A DNA stretch of 54,814 nt from Terracidiphilus sp. (lineage in GTDB: Bacteria > Acidobacteriota > Terriglobia > Terriglobales > Acidobacteriaceae), in assembly GCA_035692885.1 (NCBI GenBank), contig DASSHM010000081.1:1-54814 (forward strand), read 5' to 3'. Shown one piece after another: positions 3,516 to 46,156 of the stretch; position 1 is the stretch's first letter, and every line of letters starts with the position of its first letter. Made by a program: the position numbers and the translations under genes. The notes under the pieces were generated by a model, which worked only from the letters and a program-made list of their open reading frames with translations, was not told the origin of the DNA and did no database searches.

Positions 3516-3529
3516 GGCTGGAGCACGTT

Positions 3530-4294: not shown

Positions 4295-4414
4295 GCTGCT
4301 GACCGCACGCCTGCGCCATTGCAGCCGGCGTGCTCCTTGCCATGTGTGCGCCACGCTGGCGATACTGCCCTTGGGCTGTCTTCATCCATCCTTTGTCTCC
4401 AGTGAGAGTTTGCC

Positions 4415-20552: not shown

Positions 20553-21601
20553 TGAAGCGCCCGTGGCTGCTTCCGCTCACGCCCCTCTACGCTGGCGCGG
20601 TGGCCCTGCGCAACCTGCGCCTCGCCTGTGGATGGGAGCAACCTCAGCGTCTGGGCTGGCCGGTGATGAGCGTCGGCAATCTCTCCACCGGCGGCCTGGG
20701 CAAGACGCCGCTCGTGATCGCCCTGGCCCGGCTGCTTGCCCAGCGGGGCGTCCGTGTCGACGTGCTTTCCCGGGGGTACGGCCGCCGCAGCAATCTGCCG
20801 CAGCGCGTCCAATCTGATGGCAGTGTCGCGGAGTTCGGCGATGAGCCCTTGCTCATCGCCCGCTCGCTTGGTTTGCCGGTGTTTGTTGCCGCGGAGCGCT
20901 ACGATGCCGGCCTACTGGCTGAAGCGGCGCGTGATACTGCGACCCAGCCCGGAGTTCAGCACGGCGGGACGCTCGCCGCTCATCTTCTTGACGACGGCTT
21001 CCAGCACCGCCAACTCGCCCGTGATATCGACATTCTGGTACTGAACCGTGCGGACTGGCACGGCAGCCTGTTGCCTGCGGGCAACCTGCGTGAGAGCAGG
21101 CAGGCCGCCCGTCGCGCCGCTGTCCTTATCATTCCTGCTGCAGAACCGGAGCTTGAGGCGGAGTTGCGCTCGTGGGGTTTTACGGGGCCCATATGGCGGC
21201 ATCGGCGCAGGATGCAGGTTCCTGACGTCTCCGGACCCGTGTCCGCATTCTGCGGAATTGCCCGGCCGGACCAGTTTTTTGCCGGGCTGCAGGAATCGGG
21301 GCTGAATGTGGCCACCCGCACCGCATTTCGCGACCATCATCGCTTTACGGCGCAGGACATGCAAAGCCTGATCGCCTCAGCGCGTTCCGCCGGAGCGGTG
21401 GCGCTGGTGACCACGGAGAAGGATCTGGTGCGGATTGGGGACATAAGATCACTTGTTCCGCAATCGGTTCTGGACTCGATGCCGCTCCTGCCCGTGCGGC
21501 TCACGGTCGAAATCGAGCACGCATCCGCGGCGATGGATTGGCTGATTGCGCGCCTCAGAGCGGTCAAAACCGCTCCCGTCAAAGCTGGCGCGGCCCTGTG
21601 A
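20549..21601 (+). CDS. lpxK: tetraacyldisaccharide 4'-kinase
   Basis: SVGNLSTGGLGKTP, SRGYG, GDEP, LDDGFQH, LLPAGNLRE, TTEKD. Confidence 0.95.
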   Translation: MMKRPWLLPLTPLYAGAVALRNLRLACGWEQPQRLGWPVMSVGNLSTGGLGKTPLVIALARLLAQRGVRVDVLSRGYGRRSNLPQRVQSDGSVAEFGDEPLLIARSLGLPVFVAAERYDAGLLAEAARDTATQPGVQHGGTLAAHLLDDGFQHRQLARDIDILVLNRADWHGSLLPAGNLRESRQAARRAAVLIIPAAEPELEAELRSWGFTGPIWRHRRRMQVPDVSGPVSAFCGIARPDQFFAGLQESGLNVATRTAFRDHHRFTAQDMQSLIASARSAGAVALVTTEKDLVRIGDIRSLVPQSVLDSMPLLPVRLTVEIEHASAAMDWLIARLRAVKTAPVKAGAAL

Positions 21602-21613
21602 GAAAATCAGAAC

Positions 21614-22708
21614 TTGCAGACCCAGCCTGAGTTTCGCCTGCTCGTGGTGCGTCTTGGCGCCATGGGAGACATCCTGCATGCTTTGCCAGCCCTTACTGCG
21701 TTACGGGTGGCCCATCCCGGCTGGGTGATTGACTGGGTGGTGGAGCCCCGGTGGCGCGCGCTGCTCGCCGCCTCAGACAGCCGGGGGCGCGATACCGCTG
21801 GTCCCTCGGCCCGCCAGCCGCTGGTGGACACACTGCATCCGGCCGCAACCCGGGACTGGCGCCGCCGTCCTGCAAGCAGGGCGACATTGCTTGCCATCCG
21901 TGGCTTGCGGACTTCACTGCGCGGTGGGGCCTATGATGCGGTCCTCGACCTGCAGGGAGCGTTGCGATCGGCCGTCATCAGCCGCATGGCTGCCTCTGGC
22001 CGTATCATCGGGGAGGCCGCGCCGCGCGAGCGGGCCGCGCGCTGGTTGTTTACTGAGCGCGTTGCCACTCAAGGCGTCCACGTCATCGAGCAGGATATTG
22101 AGCTGGCCTCGGCCGTTGTCGGTGATGTGCTGGCCCCCGTCCTGCCCGCCCTGCCCGTCGACGCCGAAGCTGAGACCTGGGCCGATGGCTTCCTCCAGGG
22201 CTCGGCTTCCGGCTCCGTTGTGCTCCTGAATCCGGGCGCGGGCTGGGGCGCAAAGCGCTGGCCAATTGACCGCTATATCTTTGTCGCTGCAGAGCTCATC
22301 AAAGACGGCCACCGGATTTTCGTGAATGTTGGACCGGGTGAGCGGGAGCTGGCCGAGGCGCTTGTGAAGCGGACAGGCAGCAGTTCCACCTCCTTCTCCG
22401 GCTCGCTGGATCAGCTCATCGCGCTCACGCGCCGGGTTGCGCTGGTCATCGCCGGTGACACCGGGCCGTTGCATCTGGCCTGCGCCCTGGGCCGTCCCGT
22501 GGTGGGCATCTACGGGCCCACTGATCCGGCCCGTAACGGTCCTTTTGGTACACAATTTCGCGTCCTCCGCAGCCCGCAAAGCCGCCGCGACCACACCCGG
22601 CGCGCTGCGCCGGAGGCTGGGCTGCTCACCATCCAGTTCGGCCAGGTACTCGAGGCCGCCCGCGAGTTGCTATATCCTGACACCGCCCGGAACATGCCCG
22701 ATGACTGA
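21614..22708 (+). CDS. waaC: GT9 LPS heptosyltransferase (WaaC-like)
   Basis: RLGAMGDILH, DLQG, PGAGWGAKRWP, GDTGPLHLA, YGPTDP. Confidence 0.82.
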   Translation: MQTQPEFRLLVVRLGAMGDILHALPALTALRVAHPGWVIDWVVEPRWRALLAASDSRGRDTAGPSARQPLVDTLHPAATRDWRRRPASRATLLAIRGLRTSLRGGAYDAVLDLQGALRSAVISRMAASGRIIGEAAPRERAARWLFTERVATQGVHVIEQDIELASAVVGDVLAPVLPALPVDAEAETWADGFLQGSASGSVVLLNPGAGWGAKRWPIDRYIFVAAELIKDGHRIFVNVGPGERELAEALVKRTGSSSTSFSGSLDQLIALTRRVALVIAGDTGPLHLACALGRPVVGIYGPTDPARNGPFGTQFRVLRSPQSRRDHTRRAAPEAGLLTIQFGQVLEAARELLYPDTARNMPDD

Positions 22709-23354
22709 GCCCAGCAACCCATCAAATCAGGAATTCAACAGCCCAGCCAACGCTGCTCAACAGCCGCCTGACTGGATTGCCCACTGGCAGCGTCTGGCGC
22801 GCCGGATTCGCGTGCCGCTCGGGTTTCTTGTTGCGGCTCTCTACCTCTTTGAACTGTGGCGTCGCTCGCCGCAGCCGGCCGCAATCGCGTGGAGCCTGGC
22901 GCTCGTTGTTCCCGGCCTGTGGCTGCGCGGATACGCCGCCGGGTATGTGAAAAAGAATCGCGAGCTCACCCAGACCGGGCCGTACGCTCATACCCGCAAT
23001 CCTCTCTATCTGGGCTCCATGCTCATTGCGGCGGGCTTTGCCCTGGCTCTGCTCAGTTGGGCGGTCGCTCTGGTGCTGGCGGCGGGTTTTCTTCTTATTT
23101 ACGTCCCCGTCATCGCGGCTGAAGAGCGCTTTCTCCACGCGGCCTTCAAGGAATTCAACGCCTATTGCCGTCGTGTTCCCCGCCTCATTCCGCGTCTCAC
23201 TCCGGCTCCCTGTCCAGCGGCCCGGGGCCGCTTCTCATTCGCGCTCTATCTGCGGCACCGCGAGTACAATGCAGCTATAGGGGCCGCACTGCTCTACATC
23301 AGTCTGCTCCTCCTACGGCCGGCTCTGGGCGCACTCGTTCATGGGTGGCGATGA
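22701..23354 (+). CDS. isoprenylcysteine carboxyl methyltransferase (ICMT/PEMT) family membrane methyltransferase; LmtA-like candidate
   Basis: LTQTGPYAHTRNPLYLG and EERFL....F..Y...VPR motifs; multiple TM helices. Start overlaps the waaC stop. Confidence 0.8.
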   Translation: MTEPSNPSNQEFNSPANAAQQPPDWIAHWQRLARRIRVPLGFLVAALYLFELWRRSPQPAAIAWSLALVVPGLWLRGYAAGYVKKNRELTQTGPYAHTRNPLYLGSMLIAAGFALALLSWAVALVLAAGFLLIYVPVIAAEERFLHAAFKEFNAYCRRVPRLIPRLTPAPCPAARGRFSFALYLRHREYNAAIGAALLYISLLLLRPALGALVHGWR

Positions 23355-23402
23355 GCGATGTCTGCGTTCTGCTAGTCAACAGAGAAGGAGCCAATCCCGA
23401 AG

Positions 23403-24173
23403 GTGAAGAAGCGCGCGACCCTGGCGACCATCCTTGGCGCCCTTATCATGGCTGTCGCTCTGCCCGGCCAGCAGATGCCATCGCTTGCGCCGCCGCGGGC
23501 CGGCTTCAGTTTTCCCCAGAAGCAGACGCTCACCTATTCGGTTGACTGGCGCGTCTTCCCGGCAGGAACCGCGGTGGTGCACTTTGAGCAGGAGGGCGAC
23601 CGCGAACACATCACTGCCACCGCCTACACCATCGGCGCCATCAATCTTCTCTTCCGCGTCAATGACCACTTTCAATCAGTGATTGACCGCGCCCGCGGCT
23701 GCACTTACCAGTTTGACAAGCAGACCGTGGAAGGACGCCGCCAGGTCAACTCTACCCTTCGGCTTGACTACGGCCAGTCCAGGGCAATCCTCGATGAAAA
23801 GAACCTTGTCACCGGGCAGGGCCGGCACGTTGAGTCGAAGATTCCGGGCTGCGTGACTGACCTGCTCACCGGCGTCTTTTACACTGCATCGCAACCGCTT
23901 GAGGTGGGCAGAAACTTCATCATCCCGCTGGTTGATGCCACGCATAACGTGCCCGTAACCATCAAGGTGGAGGGCCGTGAAGAGGTGCGGACGCCCCTGG
24001 GATCCTTCAAGACCATTCGCGTGCAGCCCACGGCCGCCGCCGGGGTGGTCAAGAATCGCGGCAACATCTGGATCTGGTACACCGACGATGAGCGCCACCT
24101 GCCAGTGCAGATGCGCGCGCGTCTGTTCTGGGGCACCATCACCTTCAGGCTCATCGGCAACGAGAACAAATAG
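23403..24173 (+). CDS. DUF3108-like exported beta-rich protein
   Basis: Signal peptide; GREEVRTPLGSF...IWYTDD..HLPV pattern. Confidence 0.7.
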   Translation: MKKRATLATILGALIMAVALPGQQMPSLAPPRAGFSFPQKQTLTYSVDWRVFPAGTAVVHFEQEGDREHITATAYTIGAINLLFRVNDHFQSVIDRARGCTYQFDKQTVEGRRQVNSTLRLDYGQSRAILDEKNLVTGQGRHVESKIPGCVTDLLTGVFYTASQPLEVGRNFIIPLVDATHNVPVTIKVEGREEVRTPLGSFKTIRVQPTAAAGVVKNRGNIWIWYTDDERHLPVQMRARLFWGTITFRLIGNENK

Positions 24174-27410: not shown

Positions 27411-27600
27411 CGATGAGTTTAACTCCTCCGGGTCATTCTTCTGCTTAGACTCCGCGCCCCGGCCGGACGAAAGCGTCTGCGCGAAAACCGCCCCTGCATG
27501 GGTGCTTCAGGGCCCGCTGCGTTATGCATCATTCCAGCGGCTTAAATCGCACTTGCCGGGCAAGCGGGACGATCTTGCTGCCGCACAGCCCTGCGGCGTG

Positions 27601-27616
27601 TGTGATGGCCGTCACC
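27601..27616. promoter_or_regulatory. CRP/FNR-family-like inverted repeat
   Basis: TGTGA-N6-TCACC, one mismatch from TGTGA-N6-TCACA, upstream of the cytochrome cluster. Confidence 0.45.
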
Positions 27617-27702
27617 GTTTCCAGTGCCGGAACTGGGTAGGATTCAGCCCATCATGTGATGTCTTGTCCCGCGGGCTCCCGGAGATCGGAGGGCGGTCAA
27701 TT

Positions 27703-27740: not shown

Positions 27741-28793
27741 ATGGACGATGAGTTGGAAGTTGAGGCTGGACCGCATGCCGGCGAAGTAGAGCTCCCGAGG
27801 TGGATATTCATGCGTCGCGTTGGGTCAGTTTCGTCATTACGAACGGATGCGGTGTTGTTTGGCGTGTCGGTACTGCGCGCCGGTCTTCTGTCGTTCCTCG
27901 GCGTCATGTTTCTCTGCGCTCCAGCGGTGGCTGCTCCGGCAGGCCGCGCAGGGCCGAGCGGTGACCAGAAGGCTTCCGCCGCTCCCAGTGAAGATGCGAG
28001 TACTGAAACATGTGCCACCTGTCACGAAGACGTGGTCAGGAACTTCTCCACCAATCCTCATGCGCGCATCAGCATGATGCGCAGCGGCCCTGCCGTCACC
28101 TGTGAGGCATGCCATGGGCCCGGCAAGGCACATGTGGAGAGCGGAGGAGACAAGTCCAAGATCATTGACCTGGCCACGGCCCCTGTGCAGGCGGTGGATC
28201 AGAAATGTCTGACCTGCCACCAGGGCAATCATGAGAACTTCGAGCGCTCGGCCCACGGCGAAGCCAACGTGGGCTGTATCAGTTGCCATAGCGTTCACGC
28301 TGCCGGGGATGCCGGTCATCTGCTCAAGGCCGAGGAACCGAAGCTCTGCTTCCAATGCCACACGGACGTCAAGCCGCAGTTCGCCATGCCTTTCCATCAC
28401 AAGGTGGAAGAGGGCCTGCTGAGGTGTTCCGACTGCCACGATCCGCATGGCACCTTTGACACGAAGCTGCTCCGCTCCTCGGCGCAGCAGGACGCAGTTT
28501 GCACCAAGTGCCACACCGAGACTGCGGGTCCATTTGTCTATGAGCATCCCGTGGTCCGGGCCGAGGGATGTACGGCCTGTCACACGCCACATGGCGGCCC
28601 GAATCCCCGCCTGCTCAAGCAGGCCAACGTGAATACGCTGTGCCTGCAGTGCCACACGCCTTCGCCAAACTTCGGCACAGCCGGCATACCAACCTTCCAC
28701 ACCCAGAGCACGCAGTATCAGGCATGCACGGTCTGTCACACGAGCATTCATGGCTCCAACACCAGCCCCATTTTCTTCAACTCCACCGAGTAA
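27741..28793 (+). CDS. decaheme c-type cytochrome, DmsE/MtrA/MtoA/PioA family
   Basis: Ten CxxCH motifs (CATCH, CEACH, CLTCH, CISCH, CFQCH, CSDCH, CTKCH, CTACH, CLQCH, CTVCH), GPFVYEHP and terminal IHGSN. True start may be 27810 or later. Confidence 0.93.
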   Translation: MDDELEVEAGPHAGEVELPRWIFMRRVGSVSSLRTDAVLFGVSVLRAGLLSFLGVMFLCAPAVAAPAGRAGPSGDQKASAAPSEDASTETCATCHEDVVRNFSTNPHARISMMRSGPAVTCEACHGPGKAHVESGGDKSKIIDLATAPVQAVDQKCLTCHQGNHENFERSAHGEANVGCISCHSVHAAGDAGHLLKAEEPKLCFQCHTDVKPQFAMPFHHKVEEGLLRCSDCHDPHGTFDTKLLRSSAQQDAVCTKCHTETAGPFVYEHPVVRAEGCTACHTPHGGPNPRLLKQANVNTLCLQCHTPSPNFGTAGIPTFHTQSTQYQACTVCHTSIHGSNTSPIFFNSTE

Positions 28794-28804
28794 GGGCACA
28801 AGCG

Positions 28805-31144
28805 ATGGCAAAACAGGCAAATCTCATCCGATGTCTGGATTGGTCGCCGGCTGGGCGCATCAGATTTCAGTTAAGCGCCCTCGCGGTGGTTGCCATGTTG
28901 ACGGCAGTGGGCGTGGTTCCGGGGGCTGGCCAGGCTCAGACGGGTGCGGAGAGCAACTTGAAAGCGAAGAAGCCCGCCGAATCTTCTCCCCGGACGATCG
29001 GCGGCTACCAGGTTCACCAGACGATCGAGCTGGGTGGCCGCGTAACGGCGAACAAGGATGGCAGCAGCGCCATGTGGGCCACCATGATCAATCAGGGAAC
29101 CGGGATGCGCATTCTCGGCCATTCTCTCGAGATGCGCTCCGTCGATCCACGCAGGACGCCATTCTTCGATACATTAAGCTCCGGCAGCATCGGCTACGGC
29201 GGCGACCCGTACGATGCTTCCTACCTGAACATCTCCAAATGGCGCGTGTACAGCTTTGCGGGCAGCTTTCGCCGTGACCGCAACTACTTTGACTACAACC
29301 TGCTTGGCAACAATTTGTTTGGAGCCAGCGCCTTTTATCCTGAAACAAGCTCACCCCACCTGTTCAATACGGTCCGGCGTAATACTGATGCCCTCTTCAC
29401 GCTGCTTCCTCTGTCGCGCGTCAGCATCCGCGCCGGCATGAATCACGGTACGCACGAGGGGCCTTCCTTCTCCACCGTGCACGAGGGCGGCGACGCGCTT
29501 CTTCTGGATTGGTTTCGTAACGCCGCTGATACCTATCGCGGTGGCGTGGATGTAAAGCTGGCCAGGCGCACGCTACTCAGCTATGACCAGTTCTATGTGC
29601 TCTACAAGGGCGATAGCTGGCAGCAGCTCACCGGCGCTGACTACATGCTGGCAAATGGACAGAATGTTTCGTTCGGCATCAACACCACCACAACGACAAA
29701 ATGCAATGGCGCCTTGCAGGTGGTCAACGGCGTGGCCAACCCATATTGCAACGCATTTACATGGTTCAGCACCACGTCGCCCACCCGGACCTCGTTTGCC
29801 ACGGAGCAGTTGCGGTTTACGTCGCATTACTGGGCGCCGGTCGCGATGACCGGACGCGCTGCCTATAGCGGCGGCATCAGCAACGTGAACAGCTTCAACG
29901 AGACCTATACGGGCCTGACCAGCAGGACCGGCGTACGACAGGAGGTGGACACTGGCGCGTTGGGCAACGGACGCCTTGCACACAACAGGCGGATCAGCGT
30001 CAATGCCGATTACACCATTGAGGCCGGGTTGAGCCGGTACGTGTCCGTTTCCGATGCCATCCATTTCTGGTACTTCAGAATTCCGGGTATGAACAGCGTA
30101 AACTCCACGATCTGGACAATTCCCAGGGACACGACTCAGCCTAACAATGGCTACACGCTGCTGACGTCGGTTGATAGCCTCACTCCGGTTACGAGCATCG
30201 CGACAAACTACAACTCCCTCAACCAGAAAAATATCGGCAATACGGTCCTGGGCATCTTCACCGTCACTCCACGCGTCAAGCTGTCCGCGGGCTGGCGCTT
30301 CAACTCCCGGAACATCGTCGAGGGCGATGAAGACAACCTCACGTGGCATCAGAACTGGTTGTTGCTTGGTGTCGTGGTGCAGCCGTCTCCTATTTTTAGA
30401 TTGAACATCAACTATGACGGGATGCGCTCCAGATGGGAGAGAGGATCGACACCGGAGAACCTCGCGCCCAGCGATACCTACACCCGCGTGATGCCGAATC
30501 ACGCAAATCACCTGAGGATGCGGGCCAGGGTTGTTCCAGCCAAGTGGGTCAACTTCGCTTTCACTGGCAATACCTACGTGGCCAGAAACGACGATCCCCT
30601 GGTCAACCACAACGAGCATAATCAGGGCCTCAGTTTCGCCGCACAACTCATTCCCAGGGAATCCGTCAGTCTCGACCTGAGCTTTGGCCACAACGATATC
30701 TTCTCAACGACGGATATTTGTTACGTCTACACAGGAACGGCCGGACTGCCTGCGGGTGCAACCAACGCTGGAACCTGCACTCCCGCGAATAGTCCTGAAG
30801 GAAACACGTCTTACTACCTGGGCAACGCTTTCTACAATGCTCCTCAGACTTTTTTCAACGGCTCTGTCAACCTGGCTCCATCCCGGCGTTTTCGACTGAA
30901 TGGCGGGGCCCAGGTCAGCACCGTGGGCGGCAGCGCCGAGCGGCTGAATCCAAATATGGTTCCCGGTGCCTTACAGTCAACAATCGTCTCGCCATATGCT
31001 GATCTGCTGGTACCCATCGCCCCCCAGTGGACGTGGCACGGCAACTGGATGCACCACGGATACTCCGAAGCCGGCCCGGCGGGTCCGGCCCCACGAAGTT
31101 TCCATGGCGACGTAATCACTCTCAGCGTGAAGCACGAATTTTGA
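28805..31144 (+). CDS. outer-membrane beta-barrel, MtrB/PioB-like porin
   Basis: 11 bp after the decaheme stop. Signal peptide, ~780 aa of amphipathic aromatic/Asn/Thr-rich strands, C-terminal Phe (SVKHEF). Confidence 0.8.
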   Translation: MAKQANLIRCLDWSPAGRIRFQLSALAVVAMLTAVGVVPGAGQAQTGAESNLKAKKPAESSPRTIGGYQVHQTIELGGRVTANKDGSSAMWATMINQGTGMRILGHSLEMRSVDPRRTPFFDTLSSGSIGYGGDPYDASYLNISKWRVYSFAGSFRRDRNYFDYNLLGNNLFGASAFYPETSSPHLFNTVRRNTDALFTLLPLSRVSIRAGMNHGTHEGPSFSTVHEGGDALLLDWFRNAADTYRGGVDVKLARRTLLSYDQFYVLYKGDSWQQLTGADYMLANGQNVSFGINTTTTTKCNGALQVVNGVANPYCNAFTWFSTTSPTRTSFATEQLRFTSHYWAPVAMTGRAAYSGGISNVNSFNETYTGLTSRTGVRQEVDTGALGNGRLAHNRRISVNADYTIEAGLSRYVSVSDAIHFWYFRIPGMNSVNSTIWTIPRDTTQPNNGYTLLTSVDSLTPVTSIATNYNSLNQKNIGNTVLGIFTVTPRVKLSAGWRFNSRNIVEGDEDNLTWHQNWLLLGVVVQPSPIFRLNINYDGMRSRWERGSTPENLAPSDTYTRVMPNHANHLRMRARVVPAKWVNFAFTGNTYVARNDDPLVNHNEHNQGLSFAAQLIPRESVSLDLSFGHNDIFSTTDICYVYTGTAGLPAGATNAGTCTPANSPEGNTSYYLGNAFYNAPQTFFNGSVNLAPSRRFRLNGGAQVSTVGGSAERLNPNMVPGALQSTIVSPYADLLVPIAPQWTWHGNWMHHGYSEAGPAGPAPRSFHGDVITLSVKHEF

Positions 31145-31392
31145 TCATCAGTGCGAGCAGAATGAATGACATCTCCGGTTCACGGGTTCGAGCAGGAATC
31201 ACGATGCGCCGGCGTCGCTGAGGCGCTTTACCCGCTGAAGCACGTTGCGCTCCCCCTTCGGCGGCTTGCGAGGTATGCAGATGAAGAAATTGCGGTGAAC
31301 TCCGCCGCAGGCAGATTGCAGGGGTGCAGGATCTCATCGCGAAGGTACGTAATCTGAGGTTTTGGGTTGGACATGCTTTAAAGGAGCCAGGA

Positions 31393-31713
31393 ATGAAAAG
31401 GATAACTCGCAATGGAATGGTGTTCGCTGCGGCAATCTGTCTGGCCGGCAGTGTTGGCTACGCACAATCGGCCGGTGAAGCCTTGTATAACGCCAAGTGC
31501 AAAATGTGCCATGGCGCCCGGGGTGCAGCCGATACGCCCACAGCCCGCATGATGAAGGTGCTTCCCATCGACTCAGCGGAGATGAGGAAGCTCTCAGAGG
31601 CCGACATGATTAAGGCCACCACGGATGGAAAAGGAAAGATGCCGGCATATAAGGGCAAACTGACCGACGCACAAATCAAGGATGTGGTCGTCTATTTCCG
31701 CTCCCTGAAGTAG
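31393..31713 (+). CDS. periplasmic class I monoheme cytochrome c
   Basis: AAGGAG SD, signal peptide, CKMCH, distal GKMP (Met ligand). Confidence 0.9.
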   Translation: MKRITRNGMVFAAAICLAGSVGYAQSAGEALYNAKCKMCHGARGAADTPTARMMKVLPIDSAEMRKLSEADMIKATTDGKGKMPAYKGKLTDAQIKDVVVYFRSLK

Positions 31714-31773
31714 ACGTCGCAGTAGGCCAGCCACCCCCCATGTCGGGCCCATTCATCGCTGCTCGAGGAGAAC

Positions 31774-33219
31774 ATGCCAGATCCCCTGTTTCAGAGACTG
31801 CGTGAAAATTGGGTGCGGCCAGCGCTGTTTTTTGGCAACAACCCAGTCAGCCTCGCTGGCGGGGCGATTACCAGCGCGTCCGGCGCGGCCATGGTCGGAT
31901 ACTGGGTCATCGACATCTTCCGCGGGGGCAACATCAATCCTTATCTGGGCATCATCTTCTTCCTCATCCTGCCCGCCCTCTTCATCGGCGGACTGGTGCT
32001 CATCCCGCTGGGCATCGCAATCCGCCGGAGGAAGCTGATCCGACAGAAGATGATTCCGGCCATCTACCCCAAAGTTGATCTCAATGACCGCACCTTCCGG
32101 CATGGCATCGACATCGTGCTGGTGGCAACCATCATCAACCTCCTTATTGTGTCCATCGCCAGCTATCGTGGAACCGCATATATGGACTCGCCGCAGTTCT
32201 GCGGGCAGTCATGTCACGTCATGCACCCTGAGTACACGGCCTACAAGATCTCCCCTCACTCCCATGTCGCTTGTGTCGATTGCCACATCGGCACGGGTGC
32301 GGAGTCATTCCTTGCCGCCAAGGTCAATGGCACCAAGCAATTGATTGAAGTTGCCTTTAACAGCTATCCCCGGCCTATTCCATCACCGGTGCACAACCTT
32401 CGCTCTGCGCGCGTCATCTGCGAGGACTGCCACTCTCCATCAAAACTTGAGGGCGACAAGCTGCTCGTCAGGCCCAGCTTCGCTGACGACGAGAAAAATA
32501 CCGAGACACAGACGGTGGTCGTGCTGCACGTAGGTGGGCGCGACTCTCAATCCAGGTGGGTCGGGATTCACGGTGCACACCAGAGGCACATTGAATACAT
32601 CGCCACTGATTCGGCACGAGCCAAGGTTCCCTGGGTGCAGGCGCGGAACAACGACGGAACCGTGACAGTCTACGCCGTCGCATCGCTCAAGCCCGGCGAG
32701 GTGCCCCGCGGCGAGCGGCGCGTGATGGATTGCATCGATTGCCATAATCGCCCGGCGCATACTTTCACCACGGCTGCGGATGCGATGAACGGCGCCATGG
32801 CGGCTGGCGCCATCAGCCCTTCGCTGCCCTGGGTCCACAAGCAGGGGCTGGCTCTGCTTACGGCGGCCTACGCATCGCAGGAGCAGGCGCGTGAGCAGAT
32901 TCCCGCGGCTCTTGCGGAGTTCTATCGCGCCAACTATCCCGGGGTGCTTGCCAATCAGGCTGGTCTGATCAATCGTGCAGGCCTGGAACTTGTGAAGCTC
33001 TACAGCGAGAATGTGTTTCCCAACATGAAGGTGACATGGGGAACCTATCCCAACCAGATAGGCCACACGAGCTATCCCGGCTGCTTCCGCTGCCACGATG
33101 GCGATCACACCTCCAGGGGTGGCCAGACCATTACACAGGATTGCTCCGTCTGTCATAACCTTTTGGCCGTGGATGAGCCCAGGCCGAAAGTGCTGGCTGA
33201 TCTGGGAATCCAGCCGTAA
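31774..33219 (+). CDS. inner-membrane multiheme cytochrome c with NapC/NirT-like domain (ImcH-like architecture)
   Basis: Three N-terminal TM helices. Heme motifs CGQSCH (CX3CH), CVDCH, CEDCH, CIDCH, CFRCH, CSVCH. GAGGAG SD. Confidence 0.85.
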   Translation: MPDPLFQRLRENWVRPALFFGNNPVSLAGGAITSASGAAMVGYWVIDIFRGGNINPYLGIIFFLILPALFIGGLVLIPLGIAIRRRKLIRQKMIPAIYPKVDLNDRTFRHGIDIVLVATIINLLIVSIASYRGTAYMDSPQFCGQSCHVMHPEYTAYKISPHSHVACVDCHIGTGAESFLAAKVNGTKQLIEVAFNSYPRPIPSPVHNLRSARVICEDCHSPSKLEGDKLLVRPSFADDEKNTETQTVVVLHVGGRDSQSRWVGIHGAHQRHIEYIATDSARAKVPWVQARNNDGTVTVYAVASLKPGEVPRGERRVMDCIDCHNRPAHTFTTAADAMNGAMAAGAISPSLPWVHKQGLALLTAAYASQEQAREQIPAALAEFYRANYPGVLANQAGLINRAGLELVKLYSENVFPNMKVTWGTYPNQIGHTSYPGCFRCHDGDHTSRGGQTITQDCSVCHNLLAVDEPRPKVLADLGIQP

Positions 33220-35864: not shown

Positions 35865-35941
35865 TGGTGCGCCCGGAGAGATTCGAACTCCCGACCTAAC
35901 GCTCCGGAGGCGTTCGCTCTATCCAGCTGAGCTACGGGCGC
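35865..35941 (-). tRNA. tRNA-Arg(CCG)
   Basis: Reverse complement GCGCCCGTAGCTCAGCTGGATAGAGCG-AACGC-CT-CCG-GA-GCGTT-AGGTC-GGGAG-TTCGAAT-CTCTC-CGGGCGC-A-CCA. 77 nt with encoded CCA. Confidence 0.97.
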
Positions 35942-35982: not shown

Positions 35983-36270
35983 TCAGCCCGCGGCGGCATC
36001 CCCTCGGCGGCCGGCCTCGCGCTGCCTGCGCAGCTCTTCCATCACGGACTGGATAAGGGTCTTCGCGCCCTCCATCCCGCTCAAAACGGCCTGCAGGTCC
36101 AGCGCCGGCTTTTGCTGGTTGCGGTTTGACGTGCAGTACACGCCATGCTGGCCCACCAGAATCAGCGAGTCGGTCAGCATGTCCAGCGCCACCGCCAGCC
36201 TGCCGCGTTCCACGCCCATCATGAACTCCTGTTGCTCCAGTTCCGCGCGCTTCTCATCGAATACGTTCAT
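35983..36270 (-). CDS. small helical hypothetical protein
   Basis: Coding-like composition; TAGGCT -10 box 6 nt before the ATG (leaderless). Confidence 0.7.
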   Translation of the reverse strand: MNVFDEKRAELEQQEFMMGVERGRLAVALDMLTDSLILVGQHGVYCTSNRNQQKPALDLQAVLSGMEGAKTLIQSVMEELRRQREAGRRGDAAAG

Positions 36271-36388
36271 TCATCCAGCCTACCGGAATTGCCGCCGCCC
36301 GGCTCATGCCGGCTTGTTCCCCTGCCCGTCAGCCGGTACCATACCAGCCGGGCAGGGTTTTCCATCTTGCCTCACCGGAAGGCGGGCC

Positions 36389-38161
36389 ATGACGATGAGC
36401 GTCAGCATCAAATCGCATCGCACACACCACACAGCACGCATCCTTTTGGCAATCCTTGCTGCCGCGGTGCTTTTGCTTGCCCCGTCCCGGACCCGCGCCT
36501 CCCGGCCCGCGCCGCCTCTCCCGGATCTCGGCCCCAATGTGCTCATCTTCAGCCCGTCCACGCCTCCCGGTGAGATGCAGAAAAAGATTGACGCGGTTTA
36601 CGCCATCCAGCGCGACAGCCAGTTCGGCTCGGCGCGCTACGCCCTGCTTTTTCTTCCCGGCCAGTATCACGCCGATGTGCCGGTGGGCTATTACACGCAG
36701 GTGGCGGGCCTGGGCGTCACGCCAGACGCCGTGCGCATCACGGGCAACGTCCACGCTGACGCCAGCCTGCCCCGCAACAATGCCACGTGCACCTTCTGGC
36801 GCGATGTGGAGGGCTTTTCCGTCACCCCCACCGGCGGCACCATGCAGTGGGCGGTCTCCCAGGCCGCGCCCTTTCGACGCATGCACATCCTCGGCAATCT
36901 TGTGCTCAATCAGCATAATGGGTGGGCCAGTGGAGGCTGGATCTCCGACAGTCTGATTGACGGCAACGTCGCCTCCGGATCACAGCAGCAATGGATCTCG
37001 CGCAACAGCCAGTGGCGAAGCTGGACAGGATCCAACTGGAACATGGTCTTTGTGGGCATCCCCAACCCGCCGGCGGGCGAGTGGCCCCAGCCGCCCTACA
37101 CCAAGGTCGCCCGCACGCCCGTCGTCCGCGAAAAGCCGTTCCTGCAGGTCGATGTGAAAGGGAACTGGAGCGTGCGCATGCCCGCACTAGAGCAGGATAG
37201 CGTAGGCATCACCTGGCGCGGTGGCTCCACGCCCGGCCGCTCCATTCCGCTGAGCAGCTTTTATATCGCCCGGCCCGGCTCTGACTCCGCCGCCAGCATC
37301 AATGCGCAACTTGCCCGGGGAAAGAACCTGCTGCTCACTCCGGGCATCTATGACCTTGCGGAGCCCATCCGCGTAACCCGGACCAGCACCATCGTCCTCG
37401 GCCTTGGCTTTGCCACATTGCGCCCCACGCGCGGCACGGCAGCCATGACCACGGCTGACGCCGGCGGAATCGAGATTGCGGGCGTGCTGTTTGACGCCGG
37501 TCCGCAGGAGTCGCCCGTGCTGCTTGAGGTGGGTCCACCGCAAAGCAAGGCAAACCACGTGGTGAATCCCATCGTGCTGCATGATGTCTTCTTCCGCGTG
37601 GGCGGTGCCGGAGTTGGCAGGACCCGAACCAACCTGATCATCAACAGCAATAACACCATCGTCGACCACACCTGGATATGGCGGGCCGACCACGGCTCGG
37701 GCGTCGGCTGGAACCAGAACATCAGCGACAACGGCCTTGTCGTGAACGGAGACAACGTCACCATCTATGGCCTCTTCGTCGAGCACCACCAGCAGTTCCA
37801 GGTGCTGTGGAACGGAAACGGCGGACGCACTTACTTCTACCAGTCTGAGATTCCATACGATCCGCCCGATCAGGCCAGCTACGCGAGCGCGCCCGGAACA
37901 GACGGCTGGGCATCGTACAAGGTCGCTGATTCGGTCACTACCCACGAGGCCTGGGGGCTTGGCATTTACAGCGTGTTCCTGCATCCCAATGTCAATCTCA
38001 CCCGCGCCATTCAGGTTCCGCGCAGGCCCGGCGTCCGCTTTCATCACATCATCACCGTCGCGCTGGGCGATATGGGCGCGATCTCCAACGTGATTGACAA
38101 CACTGGCGGGCCTACGTCCATCCATCCCCGCGTCACGCCCAAAGTCGCCGAATTCCCATAG
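36389..38161 (+). CDS. secreted bacterial GH55-type exo-beta-1,3-glucanase (beta-helix)
   Basis: YALLFLPG, VGYYTQVAGLG, FWR, WAVSQAAPFRRMH, SQQQW, WIWRADHG, GLFVEH, YQSEIPYD, HEAWGLGIY. Signal peptide present. Confidence 0.75.
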   Translation: MTMSVSIKSHRTHHTARILLAILAAAVLLLAPSRTRASRPAPPLPDLGPNVLIFSPSTPPGEMQKKIDAVYAIQRDSQFGSARYALLFLPGQYHADVPVGYYTQVAGLGVTPDAVRITGNVHADASLPRNNATCTFWRDVEGFSVTPTGGTMQWAVSQAAPFRRMHILGNLVLNQHNGWASGGWISDSLIDGNVASGSQQQWISRNSQWRSWTGSNWNMVFVGIPNPPAGEWPQPPYTKVARTPVVREKPFLQVDVKGNWSVRMPALEQDSVGITWRGGSTPGRSIPLSSFYIARPGSDSAASINAQLARGKNLLLTPGIYDLAEPIRVTRTSTIVLGLGFATLRPTRGTAAMTTADAGGIEIAGVLFDAGPQESPVLLEVGPPQSKANHVVNPIVLHDVFFRVGGAGVGRTRTNLIINSNNTIVDHTWIWRADHGSGVGWNQNISDNGLVVNGDNVTIYGLFVEHHQQFQVLWNGNGGRTYFYQSEIPYDPPDQASYASAPGTDGWASYKVADSVTTHEAWGLGIYSVFLHPNVNLTRAIQVPRRPGVRFHHIITVALGDMGAISNVIDNTGGPTSIHPRVTPKVAEFP

Positions 38162-38222: not shown

Positions 38223-39935
38223 ATGGCCAGCGAAGACACGCCCGCATCCCTGCCCGCCCCAGCCGAGGCTGATCAACCCGCCGCCGAATCCGCCGAAGAT
38301 TTCGGAGCGTTGCTCTCTGAGTTCGAGCGTGGCCACACCCACAACGCAGGCGCGGGTTCGCGTCAGCTCGAGGGTACGGTCGTGTCCCTCTCGGCCGAAG
38401 ATGTATTTCTCGACATCGGCTACAAAACCGAAGGGGTCCTGCCGCGCGCGTCGTTCGCCGACAACGCTGAGTCGGTGAACCCCGGCGATGTTATTTTCGT
38501 CTCCGTCAAGGGCCGCAACGAGGAGGGCTACTACGAGCTGTCGCGCTTCAGGGTGGCACAACCCCGCGACTGGTCGGCGCTTCAGGCGGCGCTCGATGAA
38601 AAGCTCGCCGTGGCCGGCACGGTCACCGGCGCCGTCAAGGGCGGCCTCACGGTCGATATCGGGGTGCGCGCCTTCCTCCCCGCCAGCCGCAGCGGTGCCC
38701 GCGACGCCGCGGAGCTGGAGAAGCTGGTCGGAACCGAGATAACCTGCCGCGTCACCCGGCTCGACGTCACCGATGAAAATGTGGTCGTCGACCGCCGAGT
38801 TGTTCTTGAGGAGCAGGCGCGCGCGTCGGCGGAAGCGCGGCTCGCGGCGATGCAGCCAGGCGACGTGCTCGCCGGCACGGTGCGCAGTCTCGCCGCCTAC
38901 GGTGCATTTGTCGATATCGGCGGCGTCGATGGCCTCCTGCACGTCAGCGACATCGCGTGGAGCCGCGTGAGCAAGCCGGAGGACGTGCTCAGCGTGGGAC
39001 AGGAGATCAGGGTCAGAATTCTAAAAATTGACCCCGGCACTAAGAAGATTTCCCTCGGCCTCAAGCAGTTGCAGCCCGAGCCATGGCTGGCAGCGGCTGA
39101 GAAGTATCAGCCCGGCCAGCGCGTCGCCGGAGCGGTTACGCGCCTCGCCGATTTCGGAGCCTTCGTCGAAATCGAGCCCGGCGTCGAGGGCCTGATTCAC
39201 GTCTCTGAAATGGCATGGGGCAAAAAGGTTCGCCACCCCGGCGACATGCTCAAGCCCGGCGATCAGGTCGATGCCGTCATCCTTGCCATCCAGCCCGGGG
39301 ACCGCCGTATCTCGCTCGGCCTGAAGCAGGCCCTCGCCGACCCGTGGGTCGATGCGCAGCAGCGCTTCCCCGTCGGGTCACAGATTGAGGGGCCCATTAC
39401 CCGGCTGATGAATTTTGGCGCCTTTGTCGAGCTCGCCGATGGCATTGAGGGGCTGGTGCACGTCAGTGAGATCAGCGCGGAAAAGCGCATCCATCATCCC
39501 GCCGGCGTGCTGCGCGTGGGGCAGCGCATCAAGGCCCGGGTGCTTGCCATCGACGCGCAGAAGCGGCAGATGAAGCTGAGCATCAAACAGCTCGTGCCAA
39601 CCGGCATCGATGAATACATTGCCGGGCACAAGTCCGGCGACACCGTCTCCGGCCGTGTCGTGCAGGTGTCCGGGTATGAAGCGCGCGTCGAGCTGGGTGA
39701 GGGAATCAACGGCGTTTGCCGCATGACTTCGGCCGGTCCAGCTGTATCGGTCTCCGCTCCCGCCGCCGGGGCTGACCTCTCCGCGCTCACGTCGATGCTG
39801 CAGGCGCGCTGGAAGGGCAAACTCCCCGCATCGCAGGCGTCCGAACCTCTCAGCGAAGGCCAGATTCGCAGCTTTACAATCACCGGCATGAACGCTGAAA
39901 CCAAACTGATCGAACTGGCGTTGGCGGAGTCCTAA
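38223..39935 (+). CDS. ribosomal protein S1-like multi-S1-domain protein (possible rpsA paralogue)
   Basis: Repeated S1 motifs (YGAFVDIGGVDGLLHVSDI, FGAFVEIEPGVEGLIHVSEM, FGAFVELADGIEGLVHVSEI). Sixth domain is divergent. Confidence 0.8.
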   Translation: MASEDTPASLPAPAEADQPAAESAEDFGALLSEFERGHTHNAGAGSRQLEGTVVSLSAEDVFLDIGYKTEGVLPRASFADNAESVNPGDVIFVSVKGRNEEGYYELSRFRVAQPRDWSALQAALDEKLAVAGTVTGAVKGGLTVDIGVRAFLPASRSGARDAAELEKLVGTEITCRVTRLDVTDENVVVDRRVVLEEQARASAEARLAAMQPGDVLAGTVRSLAAYGAFVDIGGVDGLLHVSDIAWSRVSKPEDVLSVGQEIRVRILKIDPGTKKISLGLKQLQPEPWLAAAEKYQPGQRVAGAVTRLADFGAFVEIEPGVEGLIHVSEMAWGKKVRHPGDMLKPGDQVDAVILAIQPGDRRISLGLKQALADPWVDAQQRFPVGSQIEGPITRLMNFGAFVELADGIEGLVHVSEISAEKRIHHPAGVLRVGQRIKARVLAIDAQKRQMKLSIKQLVPTGIDEYIAGHKSGDTVSGRVVQVSGYEARVELGEGINGVCRMTSAGPAVSVSAPAAGADLSALTSMLQARWKGKLPASQASEPLSEGQIRSFTITGMNAETKLIELALAES

Positions 39936-40192
39936 AGGTAGACTTCGTCGATGTAGCACCACCGCCAGTCCTCGCCGCGCTCGGCTGACTGGATTAGCGG
40001 GTGCTGAGTCTCGTGAAAGTGCGCCCGCGCATGGCGATTCTTTGACATGTCACAGCAGCCCACGTGGCCGCACTCCAGGCATATTCTCAGGTGCACCCAC
40101 CTGTCGCCACTCTTCAGGCACTCCTCGCAGCCTTTTGTCCGCGGTTTCACCTGCTTCAAATGTTCAGCGGTATGTGTGCATTCCTTGGTCAT
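39932..40192 (-). CDS. stand-alone UBP-type zinc finger protein
   Basis: CTH...GCEEC.....WVHLRICLECGHVGCCD....HA..HF....HP.......W.WCY.D. Confidence 0.85.
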   Translation of the reverse strand: MTKECTHTAEHLKQVKPRTKGCEECLKSGDRWVHLRICLECGHVGCCDMSKNRHARAHFHETQHPLIQSAERGEDWRWCYIDEVYL

Positions 40193-40222: not shown

Positions 40223-41788
40223 TCAAACTACGCGATACTGCTCCGCCAGCGTGCAAAAGTCCTTCGTCTGCGCGCCAACCCACTTCTCATCGTGGCCCAG
40301 TTCGGTGGCCATCAGTCGCGCCACCGGCTCAGCCATCTCCATCGCCGCCCGGGCATTGAGAAATAATGCCCGCATCCGCCTCGCCAGAACATCTTCCACC
40401 GTGCGCGCCATCTCCGCCCGGACCGCCCACACCGCCTCCGCTGCCAGATAGGGCAGATCTGGATGCAGTTGCCTCGCCAGCGCGGGGTTCTGCGCCAGCT
40501 TCAGTATCGCCTCTGCATCCGCGCCGTATACCTCCAGGCTTCCCAGCTTCTGAGCATCGCGCATATATCCGTGAATGCGCAGATTGCGCGTGGGGCACGG
40601 CTCATCGCGCAGCCTCCCCAGCGTAATGGCGTGGTCCACGCAGTCCTCGGCCATGTGGCGATAGGTGGTCCACTTTCCCCCCGTAATGGTCAGCAGCCCC
40701 GACGCGTCCACATGAATCACATGATCCCGCGACAGCGCCGACGTCCTGCCCTCGCCCTTCACCAGCGGGCGCAGGCCCACATACACGGCCAGCACATCGG
40801 CTCTCGCCGGCGGCCGCGTCAAATACCGCCCCGCCGTTTCAAGGATGAACTCGATCTCCTCCTCGAACGGCCTTGGTTCCAGGCTCGGCGCGTCAACCGG
40901 CGTATCCGTGGTGCCCGCCACCGCGTGCCCGTGCCACGGAATAACGAACAGCACGCGCCCGTCGCTGGTATGCGGAACCATCAGCGCCGTGTCCCCCTTC
41001 AGAAATGAGCGGTCGAAGACCAGGTGAATTCCCTGGCTGGTCACCATCAGAGCCTCGGCATCGGGCTCGGCCATGCGGCGGATTGAGTCCGTGAAGATGC
41101 CGGTCGCGTTCACGACGATGTGAGCGGCAACCGGGATATGCTCTCCCGTCTCCTCGTCGCGGGCGGCCAGGCCGTTGACGTAACCCTCTTCGTCGCGTGT
41201 CAGCTCCGTTGCCGGGCAGTAGTTGACCACCGTCGCGCCGTGATCGGCGGCCGTCATGGCCAGGTGGACGAGCAGCCGCGCATCGTCAAACTGGCCGTCA
41301 TAGTAGACCACCCCACCGCGCAGTTCCTCCGGCTCCAGCCCCGGCAGCCGCTTCAGGGTCTCCTCCCTGGTCAGCAGTTCCGATGCTCCAAAGCCGTACT
41401 TGCCCGCCAGCATGTCGTACAGCTTCAGGCCGATTCCGTAAAATGGCGCCTCCCACCAGGAGTAATTCGGCACCACGAACGCCAGATCGTGCACCAGGTG
41501 CGGCGCGTTCTGGCGCAGCAGGCCGCGCTCCTTCAGTGCCGACATCACCAGGGAGATGTTGCCCTGCTCCAGATAACGCACCCCGCCATGCACCAGTTTA
41601 GTGCTGCGGCTGCTGGTGCCCTTGCCAAAGTCGTGCGCCTCCACCAGCGCCACGTCCAGCCCGCGCGCCGCCGCGTCCACCGCCACGCCCATGCCCGTGG
41701 CGCCGCCGCCCACAATCGCCAGGTCCCACGGCTTCTTTTGCTCAGCCCGCTCGCGCAGCCTGCGGACCATCTCTTCCCTGCGCATCAA
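40223..41788 (-). CDS. glpD: FAD-dependent glycerol-3-phosphate dehydrogenase
   Basis: GGGATG, GTSSRSTKLVHGGVRYL, GQFDDAR, GLRPL, GGKWTTYR. Confidence 0.93.
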   Translation of the reverse strand: MMRREEMVRRLRERAEQKKPWDLAIVGGGATGMGVAVDAAARGLDVALVEAHDFGKGTSSRSTKLVHGGVRYLEQGNISLVMSALKERGLLRQNAPHLVHDLAFVVPNYSWWEAPFYGIGLKLYDMLAGKYGFGASELLTREETLKRLPGLEPEELRGGVVYYDGQFDDARLLVHLAMTAADHGATVVNYCPATELTRDEEGYVNGLAARDEETGEHIPVAAHIVVNATGIFTDSIRRMAEPDAEALMVTSQGIHLVFDRSFLKGDTALMVPHTSDGRVLFVIPWHGHAVAGTTDTPVDAPSLEPRPFEEEIEFILETAGRYLTRPPARADVLAVYVGLRPLVKGEGRTSALSRDHVIHVDASGLLTITGGKWTTYRHMAEDCVDHAITLGRLRDEPCPTRNLRIHGYMRDAQKLGSLEVYGADAEAILKLAQNPALARQLHPDLPYLAAEAVWAVRAEMARTVEDVLARRMRALFLNARAAMEMAEPVARLMATELGHDEKWVGAQTKDFCTLAEQYRVV

Positions 41789-41800
41789 CGACTCCAGTGA

Positions 41801-43288: not shown

Positions 43289-43363
43289 GGGTCTGGTCTT
43301 CCTCGGCAACCAGTCAAACACGCTGAGCGGCGCCCGGGCAAACCGCCGCTGGCCTTCACCCGC

Positions 43364-44812: not shown

Positions 44813-44933
44813 ACATCCTCCTTCCGGTGCTCAAGCATTTTTCTGGTTGCCCGGTCTCAAAACCGGTGTCCTGCAGTCAGTGCGACCGCCAGCGAGCATT
44901 GACCTTCCACTCCGCAGGCAAGGCCGCGCATGC

Positions 44934-46109: not shown

Positions 46110-46156
46110 GTGAAGTCTCCACCAGCCCTTGTGCCGCCGGGTTATCGCCGCCGGGG

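Follow-up and report, generated by a model that had tools for sequence, protein, structure and literature searches.

The described systems closest to the locus reported here are the MtrCAB-CymA pathway of Shewanella, the MtoA-MtoB-MtoD-ImoA cluster of Sideroxydans lithotrophicus ES-1, the inner-membrane cytochrome ImcH of Geobacter sulfurreducens and the mtrCAB-type clusters of Acidobacteria. ImcH is a characterised menaquinol oxidase with low-potential hemes (bioRxiv 10.1101/2023.05.03.539133), and it is known only as a quinol oxidase; PMC6295460 describes it as occurring only in Fe(III) reducers. The same paper reports no mtrAB or mtoAB genes adjacent to imcH, and PMC8805035 reports no inner-membrane quinone oxidoreductase near the Group 5 acidobacterial mtrCAB genes. 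Here we describe a four-gene cassette in a stretch of DNA from Terracidiphilus sp. (GenBank assembly GCA_035692885.1, contig DASSHM010000081.1, positions 1 to 54,814 of the forward strand; hereafter the window), in which genes for an MtrA-family decaheme cytochrome, a predicted MtrB-fold porin, a monoheme cytochrome and an ImcH-type cytochrome stand side by side without mtrC. The cassette probably encodes a conduit that is induced at low oxygen and carries electrons outward from menaquinol to the cell surface.

Acidic soils and peat harbour abundant acidobacteria of subdivision 1, some of which reduce Fe(III) by means of genes that are not established. Parts of the cassette and similar clusters have already been reported from Acidobacteria. 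Homologues of imcH were noted (PMC4251993, PMC6295460), decahemes were flagged in Arctic peat (PMC3669403), Acidobacteriia dominated the Mtr-domain hits in tropical soil (PMC7980381), and porin-multiheme clusters were found to be conserved and transcribed in peat Terriglobia in a survey that started from extracellular multihemes (bioRxiv 10.64898/2026.05.27.727921). Candidate mtrA and mtrB genes were described in T. gabretensis and others within a pathway judged incomplete (PMC5900883), and peat acidobacterial metagenome-assembled genomes are said to lack known metal-reduction genes (PMC6018796). New here are the linkage of ImcH to MtrAB, a porin family that the MtrB models miss, a form without MtrC found throughout the genus, and a likely oxygen-sensing regulator with its box. 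A literature search covering few subscription papers found no description of a linked mtrA-barrel-monoheme-imcH cassette or of its regulator; the main text of bioRxiv 10.64898/2026.05.27.727921 mentions neither Terracidiphilus nor ImcH, NapC or MtrB, and its figures and supplements may include the cassette.

Results

The cassette is a core locus of the genus Terracidiphilus

Within the region 27741..33219, the open reading frame list and a count of CXXCH motifs gave four co-oriented genes on the plus strand, in the order decaheme, barrel, monoheme and ImcH-type cytochrome, with intergenic gaps of 11, 248 and 60 bp (Table 1). The sequence-only reading of this DNA had placed here a 10-heme protein, a beta-barrel of about 780 aa, a His/Met monoheme cytochrome and a NapC/NirT-type protein with three transmembrane helices and six heme motifs, and all four were found at those positions. 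It had also assigned the host to the acidobacteria. Named homologues and loci belong to Terracidiphilus, Occallatibacter and uncultured Acidobacteriaceae, many of them with bog, fen or soil-survey names, and the host very likely comes from that clade; one barrel homologue bears the database label Occallatibacter savannae, a cultured species. The window is the entire 54.8-kb contig and the genome is 88% complete, so absences from this genome are provisional.

Conservation of the arrangement was assessed in loci chosen on ImcH. The 80 loci most similar in ImcH, out of 296, included 65 with 7 kb or more of sequence upstream of that gene; a monoheme gene was present in all 65 (two copies in 38), the decaheme in 64, the barrel in 62 and all three in 62. 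The decaheme and porin genes, 11 bp apart in the window, are likewise adjacent in 62 of the 65. The four-gene arrangement is not due to chance, because this order recurs in 62 of 65 related loci picked on ImcH alone; the loss of synteny that the earlier reading had named as evidence against its proposal was thus not seen. Additionally, all 20 regions from genomes chosen for adjacent barrel and ImcH genes showed the order decaheme-barrel-monoheme(s)-ImcH.

We then matched the decaheme, barrel and ImcH by sequence in a set of 36 genus genomes and counted contig linkage by hand. The barrel was found in 33, the decaheme in 33 and ImcH in 32, and all three lay on one contig in 29. Among the others, two were split at contig ends, one ended after the barrel, one had no barrel and one had barrel pieces only, while two genomes of 96% and 100% completeness yielded none of the cassette parts. 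The cassette is a core locus of the genus, not a rarity. It is flanked by a DUF4440 gene (minus strand, after mnmG) before it and by an RNB-domain gene (rnb) after it. Its GC content at third codon positions is slightly below that of the flanks (0.66-0.72 versus 0.75-0.81). Despite this, recent horizontal arrival was rejected because mnmG, DUF4440 and rnb border the cassette across the genus.

Table 1. Positions of the cassette genes and of predicted control elements in the window
Feature	Position	Strand	Evidence
CRP/FNR-type palindromic box, GTGA-N6-TCAC core; predicted activator site	27601..27616	+	core in 64/64 upstream regions
Predicted -10 hexamer, TAxxxT	27638..27643	+	T, A and final T 98-100% conserved
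Second, degenerate box, left half conserved; possibly repression	27655..27670	+	GTGATG 95-100% conserved; 54 bp downstream of first box
Ribosome-binding site of decaheme gene	27798..27803	+	AGG-GG 92-100% conserved, then conserved ATG 27810
Decaheme cytochrome c of the MtrA/DmsE family, 327 aa, with a hydrophobic segment at the N-terminus	27810..28793	+	10 CXXCH, TIGR03508, 6r2q_A
MtrB-fold outer-membrane beta-barrel, 779 aa, about 26 strands, ends in Phe	28805..31144	+	predicted fold; no Pfam or NCBIfam family
Monoheme cytochrome c of class I, c6-like and basic, 106 aa, ligands His40/Met83; predicted shuttle in the periplasm	31393..31713	+	PF13442/PF00034
ImcH-family cytochrome of the inner membrane, six hemes, 481 aa; predicted to oxidise menaquinol	31774..33219	+	PF03264 over cut-off, heme register

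The inner-membrane protein is of the ImcH type

ImcH proteins are defined by three N-terminal membrane helices, a CX3CH motif close to them and five to nine CX2CH motifs (PMC6295460). The product of 31774..33219 agrees with this definition, having five CXXCH motifs and one CXXXCH and a first helix that is moderately hydrophobic: two of the three helices exceed the hydropathy threshold and the first is weaker, with a mean of 1.3. Its structural model contains three long N-terminal helices at residues 24-50, 56-90 and 106-137. The hemes are spaced 24/49/104/117/20, against 24/49/106/117/20/38 in G. sulfurreducens ImcH, and the table from which the latter register was taken (PMC6295460 Table S3) also lists six-heme homologues in nearly the same register, for example ACP_0476 of A. 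capsulatum, which PMC7980381 calls a known Fe(III) reducer.

For the quinol site of G. sulfurreducens ImcH, E127, K173, Q179 and Y188 have been proposed (bioRxiv 10.1101/2023.05.03.539133). Mapped by spacing rather than by alignment of the Geobacter sequence itself, and hence with a one-residue uncertainty, these correspond to D138, K183, Q189 and Y198, which 73-74 of 74 close homologues retain, as do 18-19 of 19 homologues at class level (with either D or E at position 138). A fold search with the model returned NrfH as the nearest solved fold, weakly (the top three rows had E-values of 0.008-0.056 and none reached 0.001), and membership of the NrfH family was rejected, with a TIGR03153 score of 55 against a cut-off of 134 and no PF02335 (NrfA) in the genome. 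From its motifs and conserved positions, the protein is of the ImcH type and a predicted menaquinol oxidase.

The decaheme and the barrel resemble MtrA and MtrB

The decaheme protein scored 255.8 bits with TIGR03508 (DmsE/MtrA; cut-off 192.2) and 210 with the GSU2203 family, below the cut-off of 325. Its alignment with the MtrA chain 6r2q_A (E-value 1.1e-35) spans all ten hemes, and 21 of its 23 histidines are invariant among 66 relatives, giving 21 invariant histidines for 10 hemes. The hydrophobic segment, at residues 24-42, was placed by a hydropathy scan. The gene had earlier been started at 27741. When the window and 63 relatives were aligned upstream of the gene (64 regions), the ATG at 27810 and the AGG-GG element before it (27798-27803) proved 92-100% conserved; because both stand far above the median column identity of 0.25, 27810 is the most likely start. 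Membership of a DmsEFAB system was considered and rejected, since the flanks are DUF4440/mnmG and rnb and no scanned molybdoenzyme reached the dmsA cut-off.

The barrel matched no Pfam and no NCBIfam family. Neither PF11854 nor TIGR03509 was hit, PF11854 was not found in the genome, and among 46 barrel homologues it touched one, at an E-value of 0.029, below its cut-off. Similarly, a phmmer search and two profile searches against PDB sequences returned nothing significant. The identity of the barrel rests on its predicted fold, because the sequence libraries cannot name it. A model built from 88 sequences (pLDDT, the predicted local distance difference test, 82) consists almost wholly of beta structure and has 26 long strands, counted by hand; MtrB is a large plug-less barrel of about 26 strands. 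Foldseek ranked MtrB (6r2q_B) first with this model, at an E-value of 2.9e-14. In VIA, comparison with MtrB gave a Z of 24.6 and a root-mean-square deviation of 3.8 over 583 aligned positions (residues 63-779) at 10% identity, and the next entry had a Z of 15.5. The product of 28805..31144 is, on this model, a predicted MtrB-fold porin.

Thus the MtrA-type, MtrB-type and Geobacter-ImcH-type assignments proposed earlier for the three larger proteins are upheld by the family cut-off and ten-heme alignment, by the best fold match, and by the helices, heme register and quinol-site residues, respectively. The hidden Markov model check suggested with them, using MtrB_PioB and DmsE models, divided: the decaheme passed the DmsE-type cut-off and the barrel had no hit. 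The barrel appears to be a porin family outside the Pfam and NCBIfam MtrB models, and the cassette is easily overlooked because its porin is only 10% identical to MtrB and falls outside them.

The barrel is also the most variable and fastest-changing gene of the cassette. Across 50 loci and the window, pairwise distances of decaheme and barrel correlated with a Spearman coefficient of 0.88, and either protein against ImcH or rnb gave 0.38-0.64. This co-variation is only suggestive, because the kin compared are not independent. Two barrel subtypes occupy the same locus among L051-L130, one of about 750-800 aa and one of 850-950 aa, about 30% identical to each other and found in 26 and 36 of 62 loci. 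A frame in L130 combining an 8-heme protein with a barrel was read as a probable frameshift and left unused.

The monoheme cytochrome is not an MtoD

The monoheme protein carries one CXXCH motif and no other histidine, and its best PDB matches are cytochromes c6 (E-value 8e-8). Met83 is present in 120 of 120 homologues, whose mature isoelectric points have a median of 9.4. A c6-like heme with His/Met ligands is usually of high potential. MtoD is a bis-His class I monoheme (PMC4412085). The protein was rejected as an MtoD because its single histidine and conserved Met83 indicate His/Met ligation.

A conserved CRP/FNR-type box lies at activator distance

The core of the palindromic box occurs at the same position in all 64 upstream regions, and 61 of these lie within one mismatch of the 16-bp CRP-type consensus, against 0-3 in five shuffles. 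Taken in the window alone the box is not significant, with 1 match against 1.09 expected. The TAxxxT hexamer follows 36 or 37 bases after the box in 61 of the 64 regions, and with this spacing, the start site being inferred, the centre of the box would lie near -41.5, the class II position of CRP/FNR activation. The 16-bp box and the -10 spacing thus form a palindrome at activator distance, as in a CRP/FNR regulon member. The second box was seen as a two-mismatch site in most relatives. FNR-type (TTGAT) and Rex-type patterns matched 0 of the 64 regions at one mismatch and were rejected in favour of the CRP-type core. A sigma-70 and terminator scan of the window was uninformative: it gave 2 promoter-like and 6 terminator-like sites, where chance predicts 2.0 and 5.3. 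A search for RNA runs that contain the cassette listed none, which speaks neither for nor against its expression.

The same core stands before other genes. It was found upstream of ccmF in 28 of 30 loci and upstream of a phosphoketolase gene in 22 of 30, against 0 of 30 in each coding control; the phosphoketolase boxes were confined to orthologues above 80% identity (22 of 24, and 0 of 6 paralogues), and both sets include the genome studied here. Upstream of coxB it occurred in 3 of 10 loci and was not counted as conserved, and the gene for the global regulator had it in 5 of 30. In the Terracidiphilus genome itself, feoB and one of two aa3-type oxidases have a box upstream, the former a single-genome observation.

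In 64 of 65 relatives a divergent gene directly upstream of the cassette encodes a CRP/FNR-family protein that carries a CxxC-x8-C motif at its N-terminus and a RETVTR helix. The window lacks this gene, with no remnant detected at 27411-27600, and the rest of the assembly yielded no copy, although the presumed target box is preserved. The local regulator was apparently lost in this lineage. A paralogue 40% identical, with the same motif and helix, lies at C33:3750-4460 and was found in 28 of 30 genus genomes. By analogy with FNR and CRP, we infer that these CRP/FNR proteins bind an iron-sulfur (Fe-S) cluster, sense oxygen and read the box. Around the paralogue, at G000:C33:2490-17391 (L173), a single contig holds the CxxC-x8-C gene, a universal stress protein, a phosphoketolase-acetate kinase pair and three boxes, a likely hub of the low-oxygen regulon. 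In another genus genome (G003; 96% complete, 2.9 Mb) the cassette, ccmF, the regulator and the phosphoketolase were all not found, and it has possibly lost the whole low-oxygen set.

Related clusters with and without MtrC occur across Terriglobia

The sequence-only reading had proposed a conduit without MtrC, and this stood: no OmcA/MtrC was found in the genome and none of 121 genus genomes had one over the TIGR03507 cut-off. Membership of the MtrCAB type was rejected, with no outer OmcA/MtrC decaheme in the cluster, the genome or the genus sample.

At the level of the class Terriglobia, a set of 251 genomes gave ImcH matches in 105 and decaheme matches in 162. Long ImcH matches from 96 genomes were entered; at least 34 of these genomes, from 7 families, had a decaheme within 12 kb among the matches listed, on contigs that are short, and 20 of the 34 were fetched, spread over families. 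A frame matching the barrel profile was present in 18 of these 20 loci and a true PF11854 porin in one, and gene order varied. All seven long ten-heme proteins scanned pass the OmcA/MtrC cut-off (TIGR03507), and in 7 of the 20 loci ImcH and MtrA stand alongside an OmcA/MtrC protein. Loci L144-L150 hold MtrC, MtrA and a barrel, with a 4-5-heme protein in L144-L146, L148 and L150; compared by description, they fit Group 5. Because ImcH, MtrA and the barrel recur beside MtrC in other Terriglobia clusters, the four-gene cassette is the minimal member of a class-wide cluster family. For the genomes seen here, which were not matched to those of the two papers, the loci contradict the statements of PMC6295460 and PMC8805035 by showing both of the linkages that these deny.

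Two further features of the class loci were observed. ImcH adjoins 9-13-heme proteins in L133-L138, L140, L142 and L147; both of the two that were scanned carry a cytochrome b domain, as in CbcL, giving two quinol-linked modules per cluster. Fused frames occur in L139 (5374-8595, a barrel-like protein with a four-heme region, 1073 aa) and L149 (5309-7942, ImcH-containing with 17 CXXCH, 877 aa), which are either fusions or assembly errors.

Other redox genes of the genome and other genes of the window

The genome contains futalosine-pathway menaquinone genes and Ccm genes, NarGHI, a cluster like alternative complex III (ACIII) and the two aa3-type oxidases. The genome search found no RuBisCO and no NrfA (PF02335). 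In total 11 open frames of the genome have two or more CXXCH motifs; 9 of them lie outside the cassette, and their scores pointed to no MtrC, NrfA or other outer multiheme family. One unassigned molybdoenzyme fragment (C103) is also present. The narG, narH and narI genes, all over cut-off, lie at G000:C46:5804-14930 (L289); next to them stand a monoheme frame and, on the other side, a frame resembling cytochrome b6 that has a single CXXCH.

Elsewhere in the window, 219-5221 holds assimilatory sulfate genes (two proteins with a 3'-phosphoadenosine 5'-phosphosulfate reductase domain, a CysN-like GTPase, a TauE exporter and an FAD/NAD oxidoreductase), and 19248-24173 holds lipid A and lipopolysaccharide genes (Kdo transferase, LpxK and a probable heptosyltransferase) with a PEMT-domain protein and DUF3108. 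Beyond the cassette there follow a tRNA-Arg(CCG) at 35865-35941 (minus), a 680-aa secreted-looking protein at 36119-38161 that matches no Pfam family at 1e-6 and keeps its place in many relatives, and a stand-alone zf-UBP protein at 39932-40192. Methylcitrate-cycle-like genes (phosphoenolpyruvate mutase/isocitrate lyase family, citrate synthase, PrpD) and then an FGGY kinase and a glycerol-type FAD dehydrogenase occupy 40223-47041 (minus).

Discussion

We propose, as a prediction that we hold to be likelier right than wrong, that the cassette is a low-oxygen-induced outward conduit from menaquinol to the cell surface. As oxygen falls, an Fe-S protein of the CRP/FNR family would bind the box and switch on the cassette together with ccmF, for heme c maturation, and phosphoketolase/acetate kinase. 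ImcH would oxidise menaquinol at heme 1 with release of protons to the periplasm, and the electrons would cross the periplasm via the monoheme or pass directly to the decaheme. The decaheme, seated in the barrel, would hand them on at the barrel mouth; soluble or chelated Fe(III) or oxidised humic quinones are the expected acceptors because there is no outer MtrC. The gain would be regeneration of the quinone pool and hence survival or extra ATP for a sugar-degrading microaerophile in anoxic spells, not necessarily growth on Fe(III). The self-contained path and the Fe or humic activity put forward in the sequence-only reading are thus predictions here too.

The sequence-only reading held that the direction of electron flow cannot be read from sequence. 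It is not wholly hidden: the ImcH type, the promoter box shared with fermentation and heme-maturation genes, the MtrC-bearing relatives and the failure to find RuBisCO tilt the balance outward. The occurrence of ImcH only in Fe(III) reducers (PMC6295460), the menaquinone and Ccm genes, and the searches that found no NrfA, MtrC or further outer multiheme in the genome are in line with this.

Several points weigh against this proposal. Mtr-type conduits operate both ways and pairs without MtrC include iron oxidisers (PMC8805035). A monoheme of high potential would make the step to a low-potential decaheme uphill. G. sulfurreducens ImcH did not interact with the monoheme PccH, and heme 7 is its proposed partner site (bioRxiv 10.1101/2023.05.03.539133), a heme that is absent in the cassette protein. 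NarGHI and the two aa3-type oxidases could accept incoming electrons, and low-oxygen induction would also fit microaerobic uptake. One new isolate of the clade did not grow anoxically on its standard medium (PMC12935467), and acidobacterial mtrA/mtrB were judged insufficient for Shewanella-type Fe(III) reduction (PMC5900883). Finally, L088 and L127 keep the decaheme, monoheme and ImcH without a barrel, and L068 lacks both decaheme and barrel, so the outer module is dispensable in some lineages. A genus genome, G029, likewise has the decaheme, monoheme and ImcH and no barrel gene.

The four-part layout is that of mtoA-mtoB-mtoD-imoA in Sideroxydans ES-1 (bioRxiv 10.1101/2024.09.20.614158), and the cassette might, like MtoAB or PioAB, take electrons in. 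Fe(II) or reduced humics would then feed the decaheme, the monoheme and an aa3 oxidase, with ImcH running backwards to reduce menaquinone for NarGHI or reverse flow. The missing MtrC across the 121 genus genomes, the basic, c6-like monoheme, and the presence of NarGHI, the ACIII-like cluster and two aa3-type oxidases, one with a box upstream, all suit such uptake. We nevertheless consider it unlikely: no RuBisCO was found, ImcH has low-potential hemes and is known only as a quinol oxidase, the monoheme fails the MtoD ligand test, and the oxidase box occurs in 3 of 10 loci, whereas that of the fermentative phosphoketolase occurs in 22 of 30.

To a cassette that works both ways we give no greater credence. 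Such a reversible wire would let the abundant Terracidiphilus of peat and soil treat humic matter or iron as a battery, dumping electrons from sugar breakdown when oxygen is lacking and drawing them back later to oxygen or nitrate. If true, this would be the first ImcH shown as a quinone reductase too, under its own Fe-S CRP/FNR regulator and through a porin outside the Pfam and NCBIfam models.

The genes might also be co-regulated without forming one wire. DmsEF serve DmsAB, a precedent for an outer module with a surface partner. ImcH and the monoheme would then feed periplasmic or membrane enzymes, and the decaheme and barrel would serve an unlinked surface partner or another multiheme. The three loci with an incomplete outer module agree with this, as do two genomes of a neighbouring family (G043, G045) in which ImcH and the decaheme-barrel pair lie on separate contigs. 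It would also suit this reading that, class-wide, a decaheme near ImcH was seen in a minority of the ImcH genomes (at least 34 of 96, among the matches listed). The molybdoenzyme fragment offers a conceivable partner, and the 248-bp gap could hold an internal promoter. In that gap, however, the box is not enriched (9 of 61, against 3-9 in shuffles), neither NrfA nor another outer multiheme turned up in the genome, and 7 families show the linkage even though their gene order differs. We regard a division into two modules as quite improbable.

Reduction of Fe(III) for uptake, or redox poising or sensing, in place of energy metabolism is very unlikely: the feoB box of this one genome and the description of clade isolates as aerobes or microaerophiles (PMC5900883, PMC12935467) speak for it, but no iron transporter stands beside the cassette in the loci examined, the conserved promoter element is CRP/FNR-like and common to ccmF and phosphoketolase, and a system of 17-18 hemes would presumably be costly for an iron-starved cell.

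Should the conduit run outward, it would be a candidate for reducing humics and iron in peat, where such reduction competes with methanogenesis. It supplies the two pieces missing from the pathway of PMC5900883, namely a predicted quinol oxidase and a predicted carrier for the periplasm, both encoded in a single conserved locus that has a predicted promoter.

Comparison with known systems

Among porin-cytochrome electron conduits the cassette is a variant, not a new type of machine. With MtoA-MtoB-MtoD-ImoA(CymA) of Sideroxydans lithotrophicus ES-1 it shares a decaheme, a porin, a monoheme and a NapC/NirT-related cytochrome in one cluster without MtrC. It differs in having a three-helix, six-heme ImcH in place of the tetraheme ImoA and a His/Met in place of a bis-His monoheme, in its barrel outside PF11854, and in that no RuBisCO was found. 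With MtrCAB-CymA of Shewanella oneidensis and S. baltica (PDB 6R2Q) it has in common the ten-heme MtrA alignment, a barrel that matches MtrB best, and menaquinone and Ccm genes; unlike that pathway it has no MtrC, its barrel is 10% identical to MtrB, and its quinol oxidase is an ImcH encoded in the same cluster.

The clusters nearest in taxonomy are the Group 5 acidobacterial mtrCAB (PMC8805035) and the peat clusters EET1 and EET2 (bioRxiv 10.64898/2026.05.27.727921), which likewise combine a divergent porin with multihemes in Terriglobia. They are anchored on MtrC or extracellular multihemes, which the cassette lacks.

Similar to G. sulfurreducens ImcH (GSU3259), the inner-membrane protein has three N-terminal helices, a CX3CH first motif, the same register and, by spacing, the quinol-site residues. 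In Geobacter the gene is monocistronic (PMC4251993) and the partner is the triheme PpcA, whereas here the gene is clustered with mtrAB-type genes and the partner would be the monoheme; the cassette protein also lacks heme 7. This six-heme form is shared with homologues from A. capsulatum and Anaeromyxobacter listed in PMC6295460 Table S3.

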